Shown piece by piece: positions 4,406 to 40,057 of a stretch of 64,000 bases of DNA. The DNA lies in IMG/VR virus record IMGVR_UViG_3300023108_000002, one strand, 5' to 3'. The first letter of the stretch is position 1, and each line of letters begins with the position of its first letter. The notes beneath the pieces were generated by a model, which was given only the letters and a program-made list of their open reading frames with translations, ran no database searches and was not told where the DNA came from. Both the position numbers and the translations under genes were made by a program. Source of the stretch: a virus (taxonomy: Duplodnaviria > Caudoviricetes).

Positions 4406-7099
4406 TTATGAATAATATATATTTGTGCTGTGGGTGGTGTTTTTATCACTACTTGTTGATTGTGCCTGAACTTGAATAGAAGTTACTGCACCAGAACCAA
4501 CCCAAGCTGTGCCTGGCACCGTAACATTTCTACTATTGAGAAAATATGTTCCCGATCCAGTAGTGGCATCAATATAAATTAAATAATCAAAATCGATTAC
4601 ACTTCCATCGCCGTCGTTCTGCACTGATCCGGCCGCTCTTTGCGTGCCATTTACGAATAACCTTCCCTGACCTTGACTATTGTTTTGACTGCTTGTGCTT
4701 CCTTTTATTAGGATACCTTTAGTTCCAGATGGTATTGTTGCACTACTATTTGAGGTGCCATTATTACTACCTGTAGCACTTACGGTTTCGGTTGAACTCC
4801 ACGCACCAAAGACAACGGAAGAAGAAGTGTCAATAAAACTAAATGTTCCGCTTCCATCAGTTGATAAAACTTGACCATTAGTTCCATCTGTGATGCCTAA
4901 ATCTGTAAGAGAAGTAGCAGTGTCAATAAAACTAAATGTTCCGCTTCCATCAGTTGATAAAACTTGACCATTAGTTCCATCTGTGATGCCTAAATCTGTA
5001 AGAGAAGTAGCAGTGTCAATAAAACTAAATGTTCCGCTTCCATCAGTTGATAAAACTTGACCATTAGTTCCATCTGTGATGCCTAAATCTGTAAGAGAAG
5101 TTGGAATAATTCCATCAACATCCGTCAAATCATTAATATCATCTGGAATTTCTGTTGCTCCAGTAATCTCTAAAATTGCATCATCGACATATGTTTCAGT
5201 TGCATATCCAGTTAAGTCTGGCCCAACCGCTGGAGTGAATGTAAATTGGCCAGTTGTAGCACTATACGCTAATGCACCGCCACCAGAAGCAGTTGCAGTT
5301 ACAACAGATAAATCTGAAAATTCTACCATGTCTTGGATTGCAGTATTTAATGCAGTGGTTGTTACATATCCCGACAAGTCAGTAGAACCACCACCCCCGC
5401 CTGATGCTGGACTACCAACAACTCCAGTTAATTGTATCCAACTAAACCCATCCCACATTAACAATTCGCCGGCAGTTGCAGTATCAAACCAAAGTTCGCC
5501 CGGTTGTGGATCGGTTGGTGCGGTATCTCCGTATGTTGTAATAGTAAGATTATCAATTGTTGTTGATAAGTCAGTCTCGAGCGTGGTAATTCTCTCAATT
5601 ATGGTGTCATAAACAGCTGCGTCATCATTAATTGCTGCAGCTAGTTCATTTAGTGTATTGAGAGCGTCTGGAGCAGAATCTACAAGATTTGAAATTGCAG
5701 TATCTACATATGCCTTAATGCTTTCACTGCTAGCAATATTTGTTGCACTTGCAGCAGCAAAAGTATCATCATCTTGTAGTATTGCTGTAATACGCGAATC
5801 TGCTCTTGCGGCTGTATAGTAAAGATTAGTCGATCCCTCAGTTAAATCGTCAGTTGTTCCCGCTCCATTTAGATAAAGTTTAACCGTTCCTTCCGTTAAA
5901 TCGTCAGTTGTTCCCGCTCCATTTAGATAAAGATTATTGTCACCTTCTTTTACATCATCTGTAGTCAGTTGGCTTCGAACCACATTTTGCACTCTTCCAT
6001 CTGTATAATATAAATTTGTACCCTCTACAATAGTAGAAGTGTTGGGAATTTTAGTTTCATATCTTTCTGTAATGGAGTCATATTGTAAAATATGATTTTG
6101 ATCTGCTCCAAAAGTATTAAGATCTACAACTTGATTGCTTGAGATTTGCACGAATTCTGCTCCTATTTGTAATTCAACTGGATGAGCCCTTGCTTCGATT
6201 CCATAATTTTCTTTCAAATCTTCGATTTCTAATAGTGCCTGAGACATGTTCAAAACAACTCTCATGTGGCTTGTGTCTAAAATCAGAGCAGGCCCAGAAT
6301 AATTTCCTTGACGTTTTGCAACAGTTCTTTGAGATATGTGATGCGGGAGAACAACTACTGCTCTTGCTCGGAAATTATTTACTTCTGAAGGAATAATTCC
6401 TTCTACATTATAAAATTTATATCTACTTTCTTCATTAGTTGTCTGATTTTCAATAACAGTTTCAACTCTAGCTGGAATTATTTTTTTAACTTTATATGCA
6501 GTTGCTCCGCCTTGAGAATATGAGGATTGCCATCTAATGTATAGTGTGCCATCCGCAGCTTCAAAATATGGTTTATCCACAGCTCCATCATAATATCCAT
6601 CATATGTTAATGCGGTATTATTTGAAGTTAATATTGTATTATCGTATATAATCCCCCAAGTTTCACCATCAGTTAAAGTGCTCCAAATATCCCCTGCCGC
6701 CGAAAAGCTTCCGTCTGCATTTCCTTCGACCCATGCTGTTGTTGGATTTCTTCCACTACCTACAATTTGCGCGTCAAAGATTTGTGCTGGAATATCTTTG
6801 TCTACTGTGACTGCTGTTGTTGTTACTTTTGTATAAATTTCATCTTCTATTAAATCCCCCAATACAAACTTTGAACCATCGAGCTGAGAAAATTCTGGAG
6901 CTCCATTGAATGCTACGTTTTGTACTTTAACCACTCCATCTATTACTAGAGTCCAAGTCCCTTTGACAAATGATAGTGTCTGAAGATTCGAAGGAACTTC
7001 GGGATTCTGATCTCCGTCAAGATCTGAATCTGGGGTGTGATATATCCAGACAGTTGAGAAGTTTTGAGGATTTACATATTCAGTTAAATTAGTTGCCAT
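4406..7099 (-). CDS. Long tail fibre protein, 897 aa
   Basis: TDDLTEGxxNLYY repeats, APDALNTLNELAAAIND and PTDPQPGELWFDT fibre motifs, internal tandem repeats; late promoter upstream. Confidence 0.8.
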   Translation of the reverse strand: MATNLTEYVNPQNFSTVWIYHTPDSDLDGDQNPEVPSNLQTLSFVKGTWTLVIDGVVKVQNVAFNGAPEFSQLDGSKFVLGDLIEDEIYTKVTTTAVTVDKDIPAQIFDAQIVGSGRNPTTAWVEGNADGSFSAAGDIWSTLTDGETWGIIYDNTILTSNNTALTYDGYYDGAVDKPYFEAADGTLYIRWQSSYSQGGATAYKVKKIIPARVETVIENQTTNEESRYKFYNVEGIIPSEVNNFRARAVVVLPHHISQRTVAKRQGNYSGPALILDTSHMRVVLNMSQALLEIEDLKENYGIEARAHPVELQIGAEFVQISSNQVVDLNTFGADQNHILQYDSITERYETKIPNTSTIVEGTNLYYTDGRVQNVVRSQLTTDDVKEGDNNLYLNGAGTTDDLTEGTVKLYLNGAGTTDDLTEGSTNLYYTAARADSRITAILQDDDTFAAASATNIASSESIKAYVDTAISNLVDSAPDALNTLNELAAAINDDAAVYDTIIERITTLETDLSTTIDNLTITTYGDTAPTDPQPGELWFDTATAGELLMWDGFSWIQLTGVVGSPASGGGGGSTDLSGYVTTTALNTAIQDMVEFSDLSVVTATASGGGALAYSATTGQFTFTPAVGPDLTGYATETYVDDAILEITGATEIPDDINDLTDVDGIIPTSLTDLGITDGTNGQVLSTDGSGTFSFIDTATSLTDLGITDGTNGQVLSTDGSGTFSFIDTATSLTDLGITDGTNGQVLSTDGSGTFSFIDTSSSVVFGAWSSTETVSATGSNNGTSNSSATIPSGTKGILIKGSTSSQNNSQGQGRLFVNGTQRAAGSVQNDGDGSVIDFDYLIYIDATTGSGTYFLNSRNVTVPGTAWVGSGAVTSIQVQAQSTSSDKNTTHSTNIYYS
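4826..5101. repeat. Perfect 93-bp tandem repeat, about 3 copies (31-aa unit ATSLTDLGITDGTNGQVLSTDGSGTFSFIDT)
   Basis: Copies start at 4827, 4920 and 5013 and are nucleotide-identical. Confidence 0.95.
5841..5932. repeat. Two identical 38-bp cores at 54-bp period (LYLNGAGTTDDLTEG)
   Basis: GTTAAATCGTCAGTTGTTCCCGCTCCATTTAGATAAAG at 5841 and 5895. Confidence 0.9.
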
Positions 7100-23237: not shown

Positions 23238-23454
23238 AGAAGAAAAGATTTTAGACTCTTTTCCTCATATGTCCGTGCGGAGGGCAGGCCACCTGAAAGC
23301 ACGATCTCTGGTGAATATATTCGCCCGTGAAATATCGGTGACGTGAAACCCAGAGATGTTAGTTTCAATCAAACTAGAGCGGCAACGTCAATAAGTCCGT
23401 GCGGAGAGATTGGAGATACTAGCTGGGCGTATGAGGAAAAAAGTTTTTCTTCTT
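23238..23454 (+). ncRNA. Candidate structured ncRNA, about 217 nt, family not identified
   Basis: 16-bp helix 23259-23274/23425-23440; outer helix 23238-23247/23445-23454; inner helices 23304-23311/23350-23357 and 23360-23365/23371-23376; GTCCGTGCGGAG twice; promoter upstream and terminator downstream. Confidence 0.7.
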
Positions 23455-23926: not shown

Positions 23927-24310
23927 GCGTATCTGGGGGTGACTTCAAGCTAAAAGCTTATGAGCAATTATTTATAATTCTGTGAATCTCATCTGCTAGA
24001 AATGAATAGAAAAGTTACAAAGAGTGCCCATATGAGCATCTTTTAGAGAGTTTCTGAGAGTTTCTGAAGTAGGGTCCCGGCAAAGCTTTCGTACAGCTTT
24101 AGCTCAGTTTAGCTTTCGTGACTTGAATTAGATACCCCCCTAAACCTCAGCGTGTATCTTTAAATTTGTGGGTTCCCATCTGGAATGAGGCGGAAGTGTA
24201 TAGCACCAGCCCCCCAGAATCTTTCAGTGTTTCTAAAAGTTTTTCCGAAAAAAATTTTTTTTGCTGGCTAAAAACCCAAAACCCTTTTTGGTAAGATCCT
24301 ACATATTCAC

Positions 24311-24652
24311 ATGGAAGTCAAAGAGGCATATCGTTTGTTCTGGCTCGTCAAGGGTCATTTGAATTCTCCACACGAAACCATCATGGCATCTGCGAATGGA
24401 TATTTCAAAAGAGTCTGGTATGATTTCGCGGGAGAGGATATGTCTATATGGGAAGTGGGGTTTGAAGAAGAATGGGAGAGAGTTATGTCTTTTCAAGCAC
24501 AAAAAGAAATCATCTATCATTTGACTTGTAAGGTCTGTAAGGGATATTTTACTTATGCTACTATGAATGAGCATTATGATATAGAAAGAGGCCACATGTA
24601 TTGTCCTACATGCGGCCATAGTGGTTCTGCTAAGTTAGAAGAAAGTGTTTAG
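24311..24652 (+). CDS. Hypothetical protein with a C-terminal Zn ribbon (possibly two fused small genes)
   Basis: CKVC...CPTC; internal Met (MSFQAQKE) could be a second start. Confidence 0.6.
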   Translation: MEVKEAYRLFWLVKGHLNSPHETIMASANGYFKRVWYDFAGEDMSIWEVGFEEEWERVMSFQAQKEIIYHLTCKVCKGYFTYATMNEHYDIERGHMYCPTCGHSGSAKLEESV

Positions 24653-24734
24653 TAGAGATACATAGAGATCAGTCCTATGATAAGGACGATTGAGAAAATT
24701 TCAGAAGAGACTTCTATCAAGAGGTCTTTTAGCA

Positions 24735-24905
24735 TCACTGTGTTCCTTCTAGTTGTTGTAGACACATTTCAAAATCGGCAATCATTCCTTCCGCGGCTTC
24801 TACAGCACGGGAATCTCCCATTGCGCGATACTCTAAGATATTTTGACGACAAGCATCAATGTATCCAAGGATTGAGTTACGAAAATTTTCAACTTCAGTA
24901 GACAT
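24735..24905 (-). CDS. Hypothetical early protein, 56 aa
   Basis: Hand-found (MSTEVENFRNSILGYIDAC...); own promoter and AAAGGTGATTCGAAATG RBS. Confidence 0.7.
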   Translation of the reverse strand: MSTEVENFRNSILGYIDACRQNILEYRAMGDSRAVEAAEGMIADFEMCLQQLEGTQ

Positions 24906-24963
24906 TTCGAATCACCTTTCTTTGTCACTCTACTATGTTATGATATTTGTAGAGAGCTGTCAA
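24906..24963 (-). promoter_or_regulatory. Early promoter/RBS cassette (inverted)
   Basis: TTGACA-N17-TAACAT; AGGTGATTCGAA before the ATG. Confidence 0.85.
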
Positions 24964-24971
24964 GAGCAAAA

Positions 24972-25169
24972 TTAGCAAAAGACAACTCTCAAAACTTCAC
25001 CTCTTTCGCCGAAGAGTGTGTGAACAACTCTGTGAAGATGCCTTTGTGCGAGTCTGCATTCGAACCATGCTTCCGCTTCTGCCAAAGTCTCAACAACAAG
25101 AGCAGGCATTGCCAAAGTTCCCATCACAGGACACAAAGTGGTGATCGTAGTTCTTACTTCATATGTCAT
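24972..25169 (-). CDS. Hypothetical early protein, 65 aa
   Basis: Own promoter/RBS cassette. Confidence 0.7.
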   Translation of the reverse strand: MTYEVRTTITTLCPVMGTLAMPALVVETLAEAEAWFECRLAQRHLHRVVHTLFGERGEVLRVVFC

Positions 25170-25227
25170 TTCGAATCACCTCTCTCTTATTATGTCTAAC
25201 TATACCACACAAAAAGGAATCTGTCAA
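25170..25227 (-). promoter_or_regulatory. Early promoter/RBS cassette (inverted) with two GANTC sites
   Basis: TTGACA-GATTC...N17-TATAGT; GAGGTGATTCGAA before the ATG. Confidence 0.88.
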
Positions 25228-25230
25228 CCC

Positions 25231-25458
25231 CTAAAATGACTCATAATACCAAGATGGTATCGGTTTATGGGTTATTTCAGTAACTCCCCAACTCTCAAAC
25301 CTTCCATTTTTGATTGCCTCTATGGCATTTTTCTTTGTTTTGAAAGGACAATTAGGCATCATGATTGGTTCGATGTTTTCATCCACAACAACCCAACCAT
25401 ACCAACCTTTTTTGGGAGTCGGCCATGTCCAAGTGTTTTTTACAACTCTTACTTTCAT
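25231..25458 (-). CDS. Hypothetical protein, 75 aa
   Basis: Downstream of the sigma region 4 gene in the same transcript. Confidence 0.55.
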   Translation of the reverse strand: MKVRVVKNTWTWPTPKKGWYGWVVVDENIEPIMMPNCPFKTKKNAIEAIKNGRFESWGVTEITHKPIPSWYYESF

Positions 25459-25470
25459 AATGTATCAGAC

Positions 25471-25716
25471 TTACGCAGCAATGTCAACTAAAATCGAGCG
25501 AAGATCCGCAGAACGCGAAGGATGTTTCAGTTTCCGTTCGGCTTTGGCTTGGATTTGACGAATGCGCTCAACAGACAAGTTCATAATGCATCCGATTTCG
25601 CCGAGAGTGTGCTGCCCGACACCGTTCAGTCCGTAGCGCATTCGAATGACACGCTCTTCTCTGGGGGAGAGAGTAAGAAGAGTTGTACGAAGAATGTCTG
25701 AGTCGTTCTTAATCAT
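25471..25716 (-). CDS. Stand-alone RpoD (sigma70) region 4 protein, 81 aa
   Basis: LSPREERVIRMRYGL...HTLGEIG...SVERIRQIQAKAERKLKHPSRS..LRSIL aligns end to end with primary-sigma region 4 including the C-terminal tail; no regions 1-3. Confidence 0.9.
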   Translation of the reverse strand: MIKNDSDILRTTLLTLSPREERVIRMRYGLNGVGQHTLGEIGCIMNLSVERIRQIQAKAERKLKHPSRSADLRSILVDIAA

Positions 25717-25774
25717 TTCGAATCACCTTTCTCTTATTACTCTTATAATCTAACAGATTCATAGAGAAAGTCAA
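25717..25774 (-). promoter_or_regulatory. Early promoter/RBS cassette (inverted) with two GANTC sites
   Basis: CCCTTGACT-N16-TAGATT with TG extension; GAATC 3 bp before the -10; AAAGGTGATTCGAA before the ATG. Confidence 0.85.
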
Positions 25775-26039
25775 GGGCTTTTTTTAGCCTGCTTGAATGT
25801 AGATGTATTCGGAATTTTCTAGAGTAGGAAAGTTGGAAACATTTTGCAGATCGACTTTGCGAACAAAGTGGCCGTGGTGAATGACATACCACCACCTTTG
25901 TTGATCTGGAATGCTGTCTCCTTGAAGATATATCTTTCCCATACTGAAACATATTTATTTTTAGCGGTCAAAAGCAGCGGGTCAAATCCAAGGAATTCTA
26001 ACATAAATTATATTGTGAGGTATTAGAAGGAAATACTCT

Positions 26040-26525
26040 ATGGAAAATCAGAATCAAAATAAGAAACTTTGGAAAAAGGTAAAGAAAATGGATTTAGGAA
26101 ACCCTGCCGTCACGGCACTAGTAGGTCTGGTAATATTCTATATCGGATTAAAAACATTCTCTGGGGGCATGAAGGCCATGGGAAACATGGAGCATCTTTC
26201 GTTTTTCTTGGGAAATCCACTGTATATGTTCTTTGGTGGAATCATCATGACTTTGTTGTGGCAATCGTCAAGCTTGAGTACAACCGCCATCATTGCGTTG
26301 GTTGCGTCTGGTGCCTTGCCGCTTCCGGCAGCGATTGGAGCAGTTCTAGGAGCGAACATCGGAACAACAGGAACCATCTGGCTTGCGGGAATTTTTGTTT
26401 CTGATGGCATGCCGAAGGGAGACACACTACGAATTGCGATGGCACATACAGGAGCGAACCTTCTAATGGCTATCATGTTGTTGCCGTTTGTTGGCCAGAT
26501 TGCTAAATATTTGAGCAAATTTTAG
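26040..26525 (+). CDS. Na+/Pi cotransporter family protein, single repeat (161 aa)
   Basis: WQSSSLST and GANIGTT signature motifs; hydrophobic. Confidence 0.88.
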   Translation: MENQNQNKKLWKKVKKMDLGNPAVTALVGLVIFYIGLKTFSGGMKAMGNMEHLSFFLGNPLYMFFGGIIMTLLWQSSSLSTTAIIALVASGALPLPAAIGAVLGANIGTTGTIWLAGIFVSDGMPKGDTLRIAMAHTGANLLMAIMLLPFVGQIAKYLSKF

Positions 26526-26826
26526 CCACAGGCCCTTGACTTCTTTGCTCAAATGACTTATATTAGTAGTGTAAGTAATGAAAGGTGATTCGTAATGACA
26601 AGAGAGGAATTTTTTGAGTGGTTGGAGACTTGCCCCACGCATAAACACAACATTACATTTGATGAGTTTGATTTTGTGACTGTGTGCTTTCCAATTGAAG
26701 AAGAGGAAGAAGAGAGCGCGGCATAAACCGAACACATCCCCCAAATTTTAGCCACAGGCCCTTGACTTTTGAGTTCGAATCGCATATATTAGTAGTATAA
26801 GTAATGAAAGGTGATTCGTAATGACA
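26517..26826 (+). repeat. Two 84-bp direct repeats (26517-26600 and 26743-26826) each carrying promoter, RBS and start codon
   Basis: AAATTTTAGCCACAGGCCCTTGACTT...TATATTAGTAGTRTAAGTAATGAAAGGTGATTCGTAATGACA; copies differ almost only in the -35/-10 spacer. Confidence 0.92.
26595..26726 (+). CDS. Hypothetical acidic peptide, 43 aa
   Basis: Hand-found (MTREEFFEWLETCPTHKH...) between the two repeats. Confidence 0.65.
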   Translation: MTREEFFEWLETCPTHKHNITFDEFDFVTVCFPIEEEEEESAA

Positions 26827-27162
26827 CAGACTGCTAAAGAATTCATAGATGAAATGAACTACTTCGATACATATGGAAGTGGTTGTGGATTTGAGACACG
26901 TTGGTCTATCTATGGTGAAAATATCAAAATGGGAGAGAACCATCCCTTTCAAACTCCCATGACGATTCAGAACAAATGTGATGTTTGGGGATATGATTCC
27001 TCTGCTGTTTGTAATGGTAAAACGTGGGGAGATCTCTGGCAGACATGTGAAACTGTCATACGCAATTCAGTGGATAGTGATGGTAATAGAGATCATCACA
27101 TCTTTATTGAAGATTTAGAAGCGCAAGGTAATGGCGTTTGGAACTTGGTAACAGGGAGCTAA
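26821..27162 (+). CDS. Hypothetical early protein, 113 aa
   Basis: Own cassette; HHIFIE motif. Confidence 0.75.
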   Translation: MTQTAKEFIDEMNYFDTYGSGCGFETRWSIYGENIKMGENHPFQTPMTIQNKCDVWGYDSSAVCNGKTWGDLWQTCETVIRNSVDSDGNRDHHIFIEDLEAQGNGVWNLVTGS

Positions 27163-27165
27163 ATT

Positions 27166-27357
27166 ATGAACTCTAACTTAAAAACTTTTATGGATTCTGT
27201 GTGGACTGCTACACAAATCTCCGGCAACACTGTTGTTGATCGTCGTGTTTGTTTTGGTGGAAATCCAGACATTCAATTCACTGTCGAACTTCCCAATGGG
27301 GAATTTGATTTTGTATCTGCTGTTGACATGTTTGAAGTGGGGGTAGAATTCTCATGA
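27166..27357 (+). CDS. Hypothetical protein, 63 aa
   Basis: Compact operon. Confidence 0.6.
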   Translation: MNSNLKTFMDSVWTATQISGNTVVDRRVCFGGNPDIQFTVELPNGEFDFVSAVDMFEVGVEFS

Positions 27358-27584
27358 CCATATATCCTGATTTTGATATCATTGTAACTGATGGCATTCC
27401 TTTACATGGCAGCCCTCAAGACAGAGGTTCTGCCGATCGTTATTATCACCGTTCTTTTGACCCCCACTACTGGCCACTAGGCACATACAAAGGTGAGCGT
27501 GTTGAAAAAGATAACATGACTGTTGGTGAGATTGAGGCTTATCGTTATGGCTGGGATAACGAAAAAGATCGTAAGGAGTGGTAA
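27354..27584 (+). CDS. Hypothetical protein, 76 aa
   Basis: ATGA overlap; HGSPQDRGSAD.YY pattern. Confidence 0.65.
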   Translation: MTIYPDFDIIVTDGIPLHGSPQDRGSADRYYHRSFDPHYWPLGTYKGERVEKDNMTVGEIEAYRYGWDNEKDRKEW

Positions 27585-27784
27585 TGTTTCGAATAATATT
27601 TTACTCGGCTGCGTTTGGCCTGGGCGGAGCAATGATTGTGAATTCGTTTTTGAACATGTTGGAAATGCCTGACGTGCATTTTTCATATTCAAGTGGCGAA
27701 TGTGTTCGAGTTCTGAATTACACTGATGAAGTTTTCACTTGTGAAAACCTTCCAGAGAGATTTCATCATGTGTGGGTCGAATAA
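27584..27784 (+). CDS. Hypothetical membrane-anchored protein
   Basis: N-terminal TM helix; C...C pair. Confidence 0.6.
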   Translation: MFRIIFYSAAFGLGGAMIVNSFLNMLEMPDVHFSYSSGECVRVLNYTDEVFTCENLPERFHHVWVE

Positions 27785-27929
27785 TTTTTTTCAAGAAGGC
27801 GTAGATGCACATGCTTCTGGCCTTCTTTGGAAAGATAATCCATATAAAGAAGATTCTTTTGAATATTCTGAGTGGAAAAAAGGTTGGGATGCTCGTATGA
27901 CGTGGTGTTTAGAAAATGCATACACATAA
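27768..27929 (+). CDS. Rmf/CrpP-like small protein
   Basis: EGVDAHASG...NPY...W..GW resembles the ribosome modulation factor fold signature. Confidence 0.45.
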   Translation: MCGSNNFFQEGVDAHASGLLWKDNPYKEDSFEYSEWKKGWDARMTWCLENAYT

Positions 27930-27958
27930 ATATTTTAATGAAACTGAAGGTGACAGTA

Positions 27959-28279
27959 ATGACGCAAATGAATTTTGATTTTTTTGATGAAAAATCTACA
28001 CAAATGTCAGAAAATCTTGTAAATTTAAATGAGGCACTTGATGGAACGGCAACTTTAACTGACTTCGAAACATATTTGAAAGAAAGAATGTATGATGCTG
28101 AGTATAAATTGCATCTTTCAGAACAAGCTCTTACAAACATTGGACTTGAACTCAAAAATTTTCTAGAAATTTATGAACATTCTTGGAATGGATCGCATGA
28201 AGTCAAAGAAATGATTGAGACAATAGACAATTATTTTGATATTAGTTCTAAAATTACAATCAAAGAGGAAAAAAAATGA
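27959..28279 (+). CDS. Hypothetical protein
   Basis: Helical ORF; GAAGG RBS. Confidence 0.6.
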   Translation: MTQMNFDFFDEKSTQMSENLVNLNEALDGTATLTDFETYLKERMYDAEYKLHLSEQALTNIGLELKNFLEIYEHSWNGSHEVKEMIETIDNYFDISSKITIKEEKK

Positions 28280-39832: not shown

Positions 39833-40057
39833 ATGTTAAAATTAAAAAGTTCAAAAGAATTTTGTGATGAAATTGAAAAGAATGTAAGTGAAATGAAAAT
39901 GTCTTACATCGAAACAATCACGCATTACTGCGAAACTAATAATTTAGAAGTTGAAAATGTGACTCCACTTTTGAGTTCATTTATAAAAGAGAAAATCAAA
40001 TACGAAGCAGAGGGTTTAAACTTAGTCAGAAAATCGACTCAGCGGCTACCTTTATGA
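39833..40057 (+). CDS. gp33: Late transcription coactivator gp33
   Basis: EIEK...SYIETITHYCETNNLEVE...IKEKIKYEA..LNL; T4 gene order 33-59-32. Confidence 0.85.
   Translation: MLKLKSSKEFCDEIEKNVSEMKMSYIETITHYCETNNLEVENVTPLLSSFIKEKIKYEAEGLNLVRKSTQRLPL

Follow-up and report, generated by a model that had tools for sequence, protein, structure and literature searches.

What use does a T4-like phage have for region 4 of a bacterial primary sigma factor and for no other part of it? The question is raised by a gene of 81 amino acids found as an open reading frame, with its translation, at 25471..25716 on the minus strand of the window, by which we mean the whole stretch of 64,000 nucleotides from the IMG/VR record that was analysed. 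Residues 13-65 of the product, P0001, match Pfam Sigma70_r4 (PF04545) at 54.4 bits and E 9e-15 over profile positions 2-50 of 50, well above the curated gathering cut-off of 24.1 bits for this family. The PHROG matches of P0001 are phrog_351 ('RNA polymerase sigma factor', E 1.7e-15), 11306 and 36 only, without phrog_254, the gp33 family, and the GerE family is not among the matches listed in the Pfam scan. In a search against solved structures, residues 12-78 align without a gap with residues 547-613 of E. coli sigma70. Therefore position i of P0001 corresponds to position i+535 of sigma70, and by this offset V49 is the equivalent of R584, Q56 of E591 and E60 of L595. The best solved-structure match, a 652-aa RpoD (7ye1_F), carries REERV, HTL and KLKHPSRS in identical form, the three motifs that an earlier note on this DNA had singled out. 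An AF2 model built from the family alignment (pLDDT 76.7) has five helices, at 3-14, 18-28, 38-45, 49-63 and 72-80, the last of low confidence, and Foldseek places it with the region 4 chains of sigma-A (6onu, 4g6d) at a probability of 1.00 and TM-scores of 0.72 by query and 0.88 by target. Sigma regions 1-3 (1.2, 2 and 3) are absent from the ORF and from its vicinity, and the ORF is bounded by a promoter and a stop codon. The reading of the gene as a stand-alone RpoD region 4, made in the earlier note from the letters alone, is thus confirmed: the ORF encodes a primary-sigma region 4 and no further part of a sigma factor.

The gene is not peculiar to this phage. A search among proteins of similar length recovered at least 32 protein clusters of 74-81 aa and 68-99% identity on contigs of up to 123 kb, beneath which identity falls to ~60-66%, and three clusters of the ESM Atlas, mostly viral and with 50, 66 and 171 members of 72-74 aa, consist of the region-4 domain alone. 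A search among longer proteins returned no fused phage form; its matches were all bacterial RpoD, none above 67% identity. A tblastn search against 50,697 cultured phage records returned no stand-alone copy; the family is seen here only in related uncultured T4-like myoviruses. Weaker short proteins matching PF04545 only, P0046 and P0037 among them, were checked and discarded as pieces of frameshifted bacterial rpoD, not stand-alone genes. In the literature searched we found no prior description of a stand-alone sigma region 4 in a phage.

The donor is less plain than the family. Among 5.8 billion proteins no bacterial RpoD exceeded ~67% identity. A genome search, biased by its chosen patterns, put an Alphaproteobacteria MAG first at 63%, with Acidobacteriota and others at 57-62%. 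The alphaproteobacterial origin that the likeness noted earlier suggests is thus only weakly supported. The GC-richer codons reported for the gene are borne out, with a GC of 0.484 and a GC3 of 0.476 against 0.359 for the GC of the window and 0.19-0.30 for the GC3 of core genes. In a domain that hardly varies across bacteria, divergence of at least 33% from every known RpoD, together with a composition that is still foreign, argues for fast change after capture and not for decay.

We aligned 32 family members with the C-termini of 80 bacterial RpoD proteins. R584, an arginine in 80/80 bacterial proteins, is V, P or F in 32/32 family members; E591, likewise invariant in the 80, is Q (Q56) in all 32; and L595, a leucine in 77/80, is E (E60) in every family member. 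The last two are fixed departures within codons 56-60 (25537..25551, minus strand), present in 32/32 of the family and 0/80 RpoD. Two of the three had been read earlier from the motifs SVERIRQ (R584 to V) and AKAERK (L595 to E), and structure alignment places them at V49 and E60; the change of E591 is added here. Among the residues that read the −35 element (R584, E585, R586, R588 and Q589) R584 alone is altered and the other four are retained, as part of a kept ERIRQ core (E585, R586, I587, R588, Q589, I590). The position of F580 varies, that of F610 holds I and that of K593 either K or R. Helix 4.1 (S17-G29, sigma70 552-564) is invariant in the family and has the bacterial majority residue at 11 of 13 positions. 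The N-terminal helix has fixed hydrophobic gains at I8, L9 and L14, in place of the bacterial S/T, C/T and S/A respectively. Its hydrophobic residues I8, L9, A12 and L13 follow an i, i+1, i+4, i+5 pattern that resembles the patch of the flap-tip helix, and speculatively this helix might cap, in cis, the pocket of the flap. In 12/32 alleles the H4-H5 loop is short of seven residues (HPSRSxDL), L607 included, and two are missing in 8 more; the seven-residue deletion allele is also predicted to fold (pLDDT 83). L595E sits on the hydrophobic face of the recognition helix. Isolated region 4 of E. coli has been reported as disordered, aggregation-prone and poorly folded alone (PMC4236625), and both L595E and the greater hydrophobicity of the N-terminal helix may have adapted the domain to existence on its own.

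The gene is equipped for expression of its own. A sequence read and a consensus scan identify a sigma70-type promoter at 25745..25774 (minus strand) with TTGACT as its −35 and two possible −10 registers, either a 16-nt spacer and TAGATT with an upstream TG (ending at 25747) or an 18-nt spacer and GATTAT (ending at 25745). It is followed by AAGGTGATTCGAAATG (25714..25729, minus strand), a leader, Shine-Dalgarno and start motif that is common to the neighbouring cassettes and of which the motif count gives 6 copies in the window, where 0.09 are expected. The early cassette formerly ascribed to the gene is recovered in this promoter, TTGACT-16-TAGATT, and its leader. GANTC sites occur in both, as GAATC in the promoter spacer (25756-25760, minus strand) and as GATTC in the shared leader (25719-25723, minus strand), and may hint at a host with CcrM-type methylation. 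At the other end, the last codons of the gene (L-V-D-I-A-A-stop) double as −35 and spacer in the promoter of the following cassette, TTGACA-17-TACATT (25459..25487, minus strand). This promoter precedes the gene immediately downstream, a 75-aa gene of no known family (25231..25458, minus strand; no Pfam or PHROG match), which accompanies the sigma-4 gene in some phages and whose copy in the window is 100% identical to that of locus L017, while the other genes of the two are 48-83% identical. In L017 a 31-bp direct repeat of the promoter overlapping the sigma-4 stop flanks the 75-aa gene (L017:5226-5256 and 5487-5517; window 25449-25494), and on its sequence it appears to be the footprint of a cassette insertion. 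Two salt-marsh RNA libraries contain contigs over 25435-25669 at ~100% identity, which is a hint only, as DNA carry-over is possible; gaps in the RNA contigs elsewhere in the stretch are not evidence of silence.

In every locus the sigma-4 gene occupies one syntenic position and runs antisense to the arrays of small early genes around it; it is the upstream neighbour that changes. In the window the divergent neighbour is a 161-aa fragment of a Na/Pi-cotransporter (26040..26525, plus strand; PF02690, E 3.8e-16, profile positions 1-103 of 137), which is shared with L001 and L002 and has a 159-aa homologue in L003. In its place stand PstS and a 76-aa gene in L004, L006 and L016-L018, and a 321-aa gene in L005, L014 and L015. 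The 321-aa gene (L014:1920-2885, minus strand) has no Pfam or PHROG match. The Na/Pi fragment is of foreign composition (GC3 0.475) and under strong purifying selection (dN/dS 0.04 against L001), and it is odd that a truncated transporter should be kept intact. Short contigs with a phage-type short Na/Pi gene at 74-78% identity (JAKMFX010000021.1, NYWG01000234.1) are assigned to MAGs of Flavobacteriales and Verrucomicrobiales, and are probably mis-binned phage DNA. A GC-rich hairpin precedes the sigma-4 cassette in L017. In the PstS context a hairpin terminator and the gene's own promoter lie between the two genes, which are therefore not co-transcribed; in the window a scan found no terminator-like site beside the cassette. 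Upstream of the phage PstS (L017:3380-3480) there is no TTGACA promoter, and TTAC(A)-type repeats at ~8-13 bp spacing stand before a TATATA-like box, which from their sequence may form a pho-box-type, PhoB-dependent promoter. Elsewhere in the window, positions 24311-24652 (plus strand) encode an early protein of 113 aa that matches a Trm112p-like zinc ribbon (PF03966, E 4e-5), and a non-coding block at 23255-23447 is 88-89% identical in related phages despite far more diverged adjacent genes.

The main new result is the evolutionary behaviour of the gene. By blastn of the window against the loci and by comparison of dS, it belongs to a mobile block (25449..25778, minus strand) that keeps 84-90% nucleotide identity in most related loci, where the flanks are 66-83% identical or unalignable, and the conserved block starts exactly at the −35 (25778). 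Between the window and L001 the flanking early genes show 40-94% protein identity with a silent divergence of 0.56 to >2, and the Na/Pi gene resembles them (dS 0.70, dN/dS 0.04), whereas the sigma-4 gene is 87.7% identical with a dS of 0.155. Against L017, the sigma-4 and 75-aa genes form a 558-bp block of 95.5% identity within DNA that is 66-82% identical. The reverse holds for L004 and L017, whose flanks are nearly identical (PstS dS 0.018) and whose sigma-4 genes, 85% identical (dN 0.081, dS 0.249), are nevertheless the most divergent of all. Near-identity amid silently saturated flanks, divergence amid identical flanks and a block that begins at the −35 all show that the cassette is exchanged between phages. 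Moreover, variation within the gene is concentrated in a hot spot at codons 43-49 (25570..25590, minus strand; sigma70 578-584), which covers the end of an HTH helix, the turn and the R584 position. Of the 26.42 bits of column entropy, 9.16 fall in its 7 columns (permutation p < 1e-4), and dN/dS is 1.08 within it and 0.41 in the rest of the gene. The types of the hot spot are combined in many ways with the indel states of the C-terminus, which points to intragenic recombination or recurrent deletion. P0001 is thus a mobile derivative of sigma region 4 that is phage-specific and looks functional.

The phage is uncultured, estuarine and T4-like, and the window carries T4-type baseplate genes, gp5 and gp6 among others. 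Among cultured phages the nearest to its gp6 are Methylophilales phage Melnitz and Pelagibacter phage HTVC008M, at only ~36% identity, no cultured phage matched positions 24000-28000 by megablast, and the public runs that contain this stretch are mostly salt-marsh metagenomes. It also encodes a canonical T4-type gp33 late co-activator of 74 aa (39833..40054, plus strand), 93% identical to the protein of IMG/VR contig 3300024264_000029, which matches phrog_254 at E 9.8e-20. We rejected the sigma-4 gene as a replacement for gp33, because the window has this separate canonical gene and P0001 does not belong to phrog_254. Of the seven TATAAATA late boxes in the window, six have nothing like a −35 at the proper distance; the seventh, with TTGACA 17 bp upstream, is an ordinary early promoter. 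The presence of canonical gp33 and of six late boxes without a −35 makes both a replacement of gp33 and a split sigma with gp55 unlikely.

Our preferred explanation, tentative and short of an even chance, is that P0001 is an early-made competitor for the docking site of region 4 on RNA polymerase. The gene is region 4 of a bacterial primary sigma, captured by a phage and reshaped afterwards, and it rides on a self-contained cassette with an early promoter, from which the host sigma70 holoenzyme would make the protein early in infection. P0001 retains the parts that dock (N-terminal helix, helix 4.1 and the HTH scaffold) onto the beta flap and the RNA exit channel and, without the invariant arginine that contacts a −35 base, would act as a competitive, dominant-negative mimic. 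With the site occupied, sigma70's own region 4 would be displaced or mis-positioned and −35-dependent transcription of host and early phage genes lowered, while late transcription by gp55 and gp33, needing no −35, would be spared. The identity of the gene, its fold, conservation and substitutions, the mobility of its cassette and the presence of gp33 are shown here, while we infer both the binding to RNA polymerase and the effect on transcription.

Several features speak for such a competitor. Helix 4.1 lies in the RNA exit channel (PMC7948647) and flap contacts are in or near H1, H2 and H5 (PMC2988021), and the most conserved stretch of P0001 falls within the parts assigned to flap and exit-channel docking. 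The invariance of helix 4.1, the hydrophobic gains of the N-terminal helix and a position 584 that is never R in 32 members all count for it. The strong early-type promoter with its Shine-Dalgarno sequence and the late boxes without a −35 would fit as well, and the absence of a copy from the cultured phage records searched by tblastn is counted on the same side, as is, weakly, the cover by salt-marsh RNA contigs. Against it, 12/32 alleles lack the seven residues of the H4-H5 loop, L607 among them, F610 is I and L595 is E. In E. coli, L607 matters for flap binding. H5 and the loop are the least secure part of the protein, with a C-terminal helix modelled at low confidence and codons that are constrained by the overlapping promoter. 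Moreover, a domain on its own has to compete with one that is tethered, gp33 of the same phage would need the site later, and the retained E585, R586, R588 and Q589 would seem unneeded by a pure protein competitor. A complex prediction from the family alignment and E. coli beta 825-945 scored 0.09 against a mark of 0.32, which is neither for nor against flap binding.

The hot spot gives weight to another explanation, which we judge unlikely on the whole but the strongest of the rivals: that P0001 is a decoy, inert towards DNA and polymerase, that soaks up a protein which binds region 4, such as an activator of the PhoB/OmpR type, an anti-sigma of the host or the anti-sigma of another phage. 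Variation concentrated in seven residues resembles the pattern of an interface in conflict, and it lies in the HTH helix that, by rpoD genetics, is contacted by PhoB-type activators. The swapping of alleles between otherwise identical phages and the many combinations of hot spot and indel fit the same picture, as do the phosphate-uptake neighbours (PstS or the Na/Pi fragment), and loss of R584 and L595 suits a mimic that must not act as a sigma. However, the classical activator patch at 593-603 is eroded in many alleles (R596Q, deletion of HPSR), the named Rsd contacts D570 and E591 (PMC3089606) are changed, and a terminator and its own promoter split the sigma-4 gene from PstS. Since the phosphate cargo changes from phage to phage beside a constant sigma-4 gene, their adjacency may reflect no more than an insertion hot spot, and titration of PhoB would harm a PhoB-dependent phage pstS too. 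A competitor on the flap and a decoy for regulators are inseparable by computation.

Rather more unlikely is a small DNA-binding regulator of the GerE type, which would bind a −35-like element, its reading altered at the R584 position, and repress or activate promoters of phage or host. P0001 is basic and retains most of the residues that contact DNA in the structure of Taq sigma-4 on the −35 element, namely R554, R562, L573, T/S583, E585, R586, R588, Q589 and K/R593. Phage late activators with sigma-4-like domains exist (PMC3753634), which counts in its favour. Set against these points, the key base-contact arginine is missing from every allele, and inverted or direct pairs of TTGA/TTGAC at spacings of 0 to 14 are not enriched in the window over shuffled controls. 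L004 and L017 have identical flanks and promoters and very different alleles, so the alleles do not track the promoter sequence of the phage, and region 4 of E. coli is poorly folded in isolation (PMC4236625). The first three of these findings weaken the earlier note's suggestion of a repressor of the phage −35 cassettes, in favour of which four other DNA-contact residues are kept.

It is improbable that the gene is a passenger, a fragment of a host gene picked up by cassette shuffling and carried without function. Its composition is still foreign, its pairwise dN/dS of 0.3-1.4 is above that of most neighbours, and its conservation is partly due to regulatory DNA at both ends. Yet it is found in at least 32 clusters, residues invariant in bacteria carry fixed substitutions, and it holds its position while neighbouring cargo changes. 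A check for pseudogene decay in homologues, as had been proposed for this gene, found none: the frame is open in 16/16 fetched loci without a stop or frameshift, length differences are all multiples of three, and dN/dS is 0.41 outside the hot spot. The cassette has spread, moreover, between phages whose silent divergence is saturated. Intact frames, in-frame indels and near-identical cassettes across divergent phages argue that the gene is useful. Last, gp55-type sigmas lack region 4, which is counted for a trans-acting region 4 that partners gp55 as a split sigma, once put forward for this gene, or as a stimulator of initial transcription. Region 4 does stimulate early RNA extension in the E. 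coli holoenzyme (PMC7948647), but this reading is very improbable, given a canonical gp33, the known occupant of the flap in late transcription, at 39833-40054 and −35 elements at 1/7 TATAAATA boxes only, the one being an ordinary early promoter.

There is also a wider hypothesis, which we hold to be possible and yet on the unlikely side: marine and estuarine T4-like phages without AsiA and MotA would shut −35-dependent transcription by means of a captured, re-engineered region 4 that outcompetes the tethered original, and would exchange hot-spot alleles as cassettes to match their hosts or to escape a counter-measure. A free, altered, early region 4 is a simple and testable candidate for the shut-off of host and early genes in such phages, and, if true, would show plainly how a virus in nature turns a single domain of a host protein into a dominant-negative. 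The alleles are also a natural mutational series at positions invariant in bacteria (R584V/P/F, E591Q, L595E and loss of the H4-H5 loop), with which the requirements of region 4 for folding in isolation, for docking on the flap, for reading DNA and for binding regulators could be separated.

With region 4 of RpoD/SigA, P0001 shares homology over its whole length, the five-helix fold, helix 4.1, the ERIRQ core and, in long alleles, the KLKHPSR loop. It differs in having no regions 1-3, in the replacement of R584, E591 and L595, in a more hydrophobic N-terminal helix and in last residues that are encoded by a promoter, and a third of the phage alleles are without the H4-H5 loop. Phage factors that stop −35 recognition through the axis of sigma-4 and the flap are known in T4 AsiA and in gp39 of Thermus phage P23-45 (PMC2988021, PMC3950348), and the role proposed for P0001 would be analogous, that of a small early phage protein selectively disabling −35-dependent promoters. 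There is no relation of sequence or fold, however: AsiA acts by remodelling sigma-4, and gp39 by binding to the flap and moving sigma-4 elsewhere, whereas the agent proposed here would compete as a copy of sigma-4 in its own right. T4 gp33 is likewise a small phage protein thought to stand in for region 4 on the beta flap, but it is of another family and this phage has a separate gp33 (phrog_254). GerE/LuxR-type HTH proteins and the RinA/ArpU late activators (PMC3753634) share with P0001 a small stand-alone sigma-4-like HTH domain and are distant from RpoD, whereas P0001 is 55-67% identical to region 4 of RpoD. Finally, in the PeSL cassettes of T4-type phages early-promoter motifs shuffle small genes within a hyperplastic region (PMC2839356, PMC4122927). 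A repeated early-promoter motif flanks the sigma-4 gene in the same way, with breakpoints of gain and loss at the motif, but the repeated unit here is the promoter with its leader and Shine-Dalgarno sequence, and a stem-loop is seen only in some contexts. Moreover, the cargo is a host-derived regulatory domain and not an ORFan, and the recombining sigma-4 cassette adds regulatory cargo to the shuffling known from PeSL-type elements.
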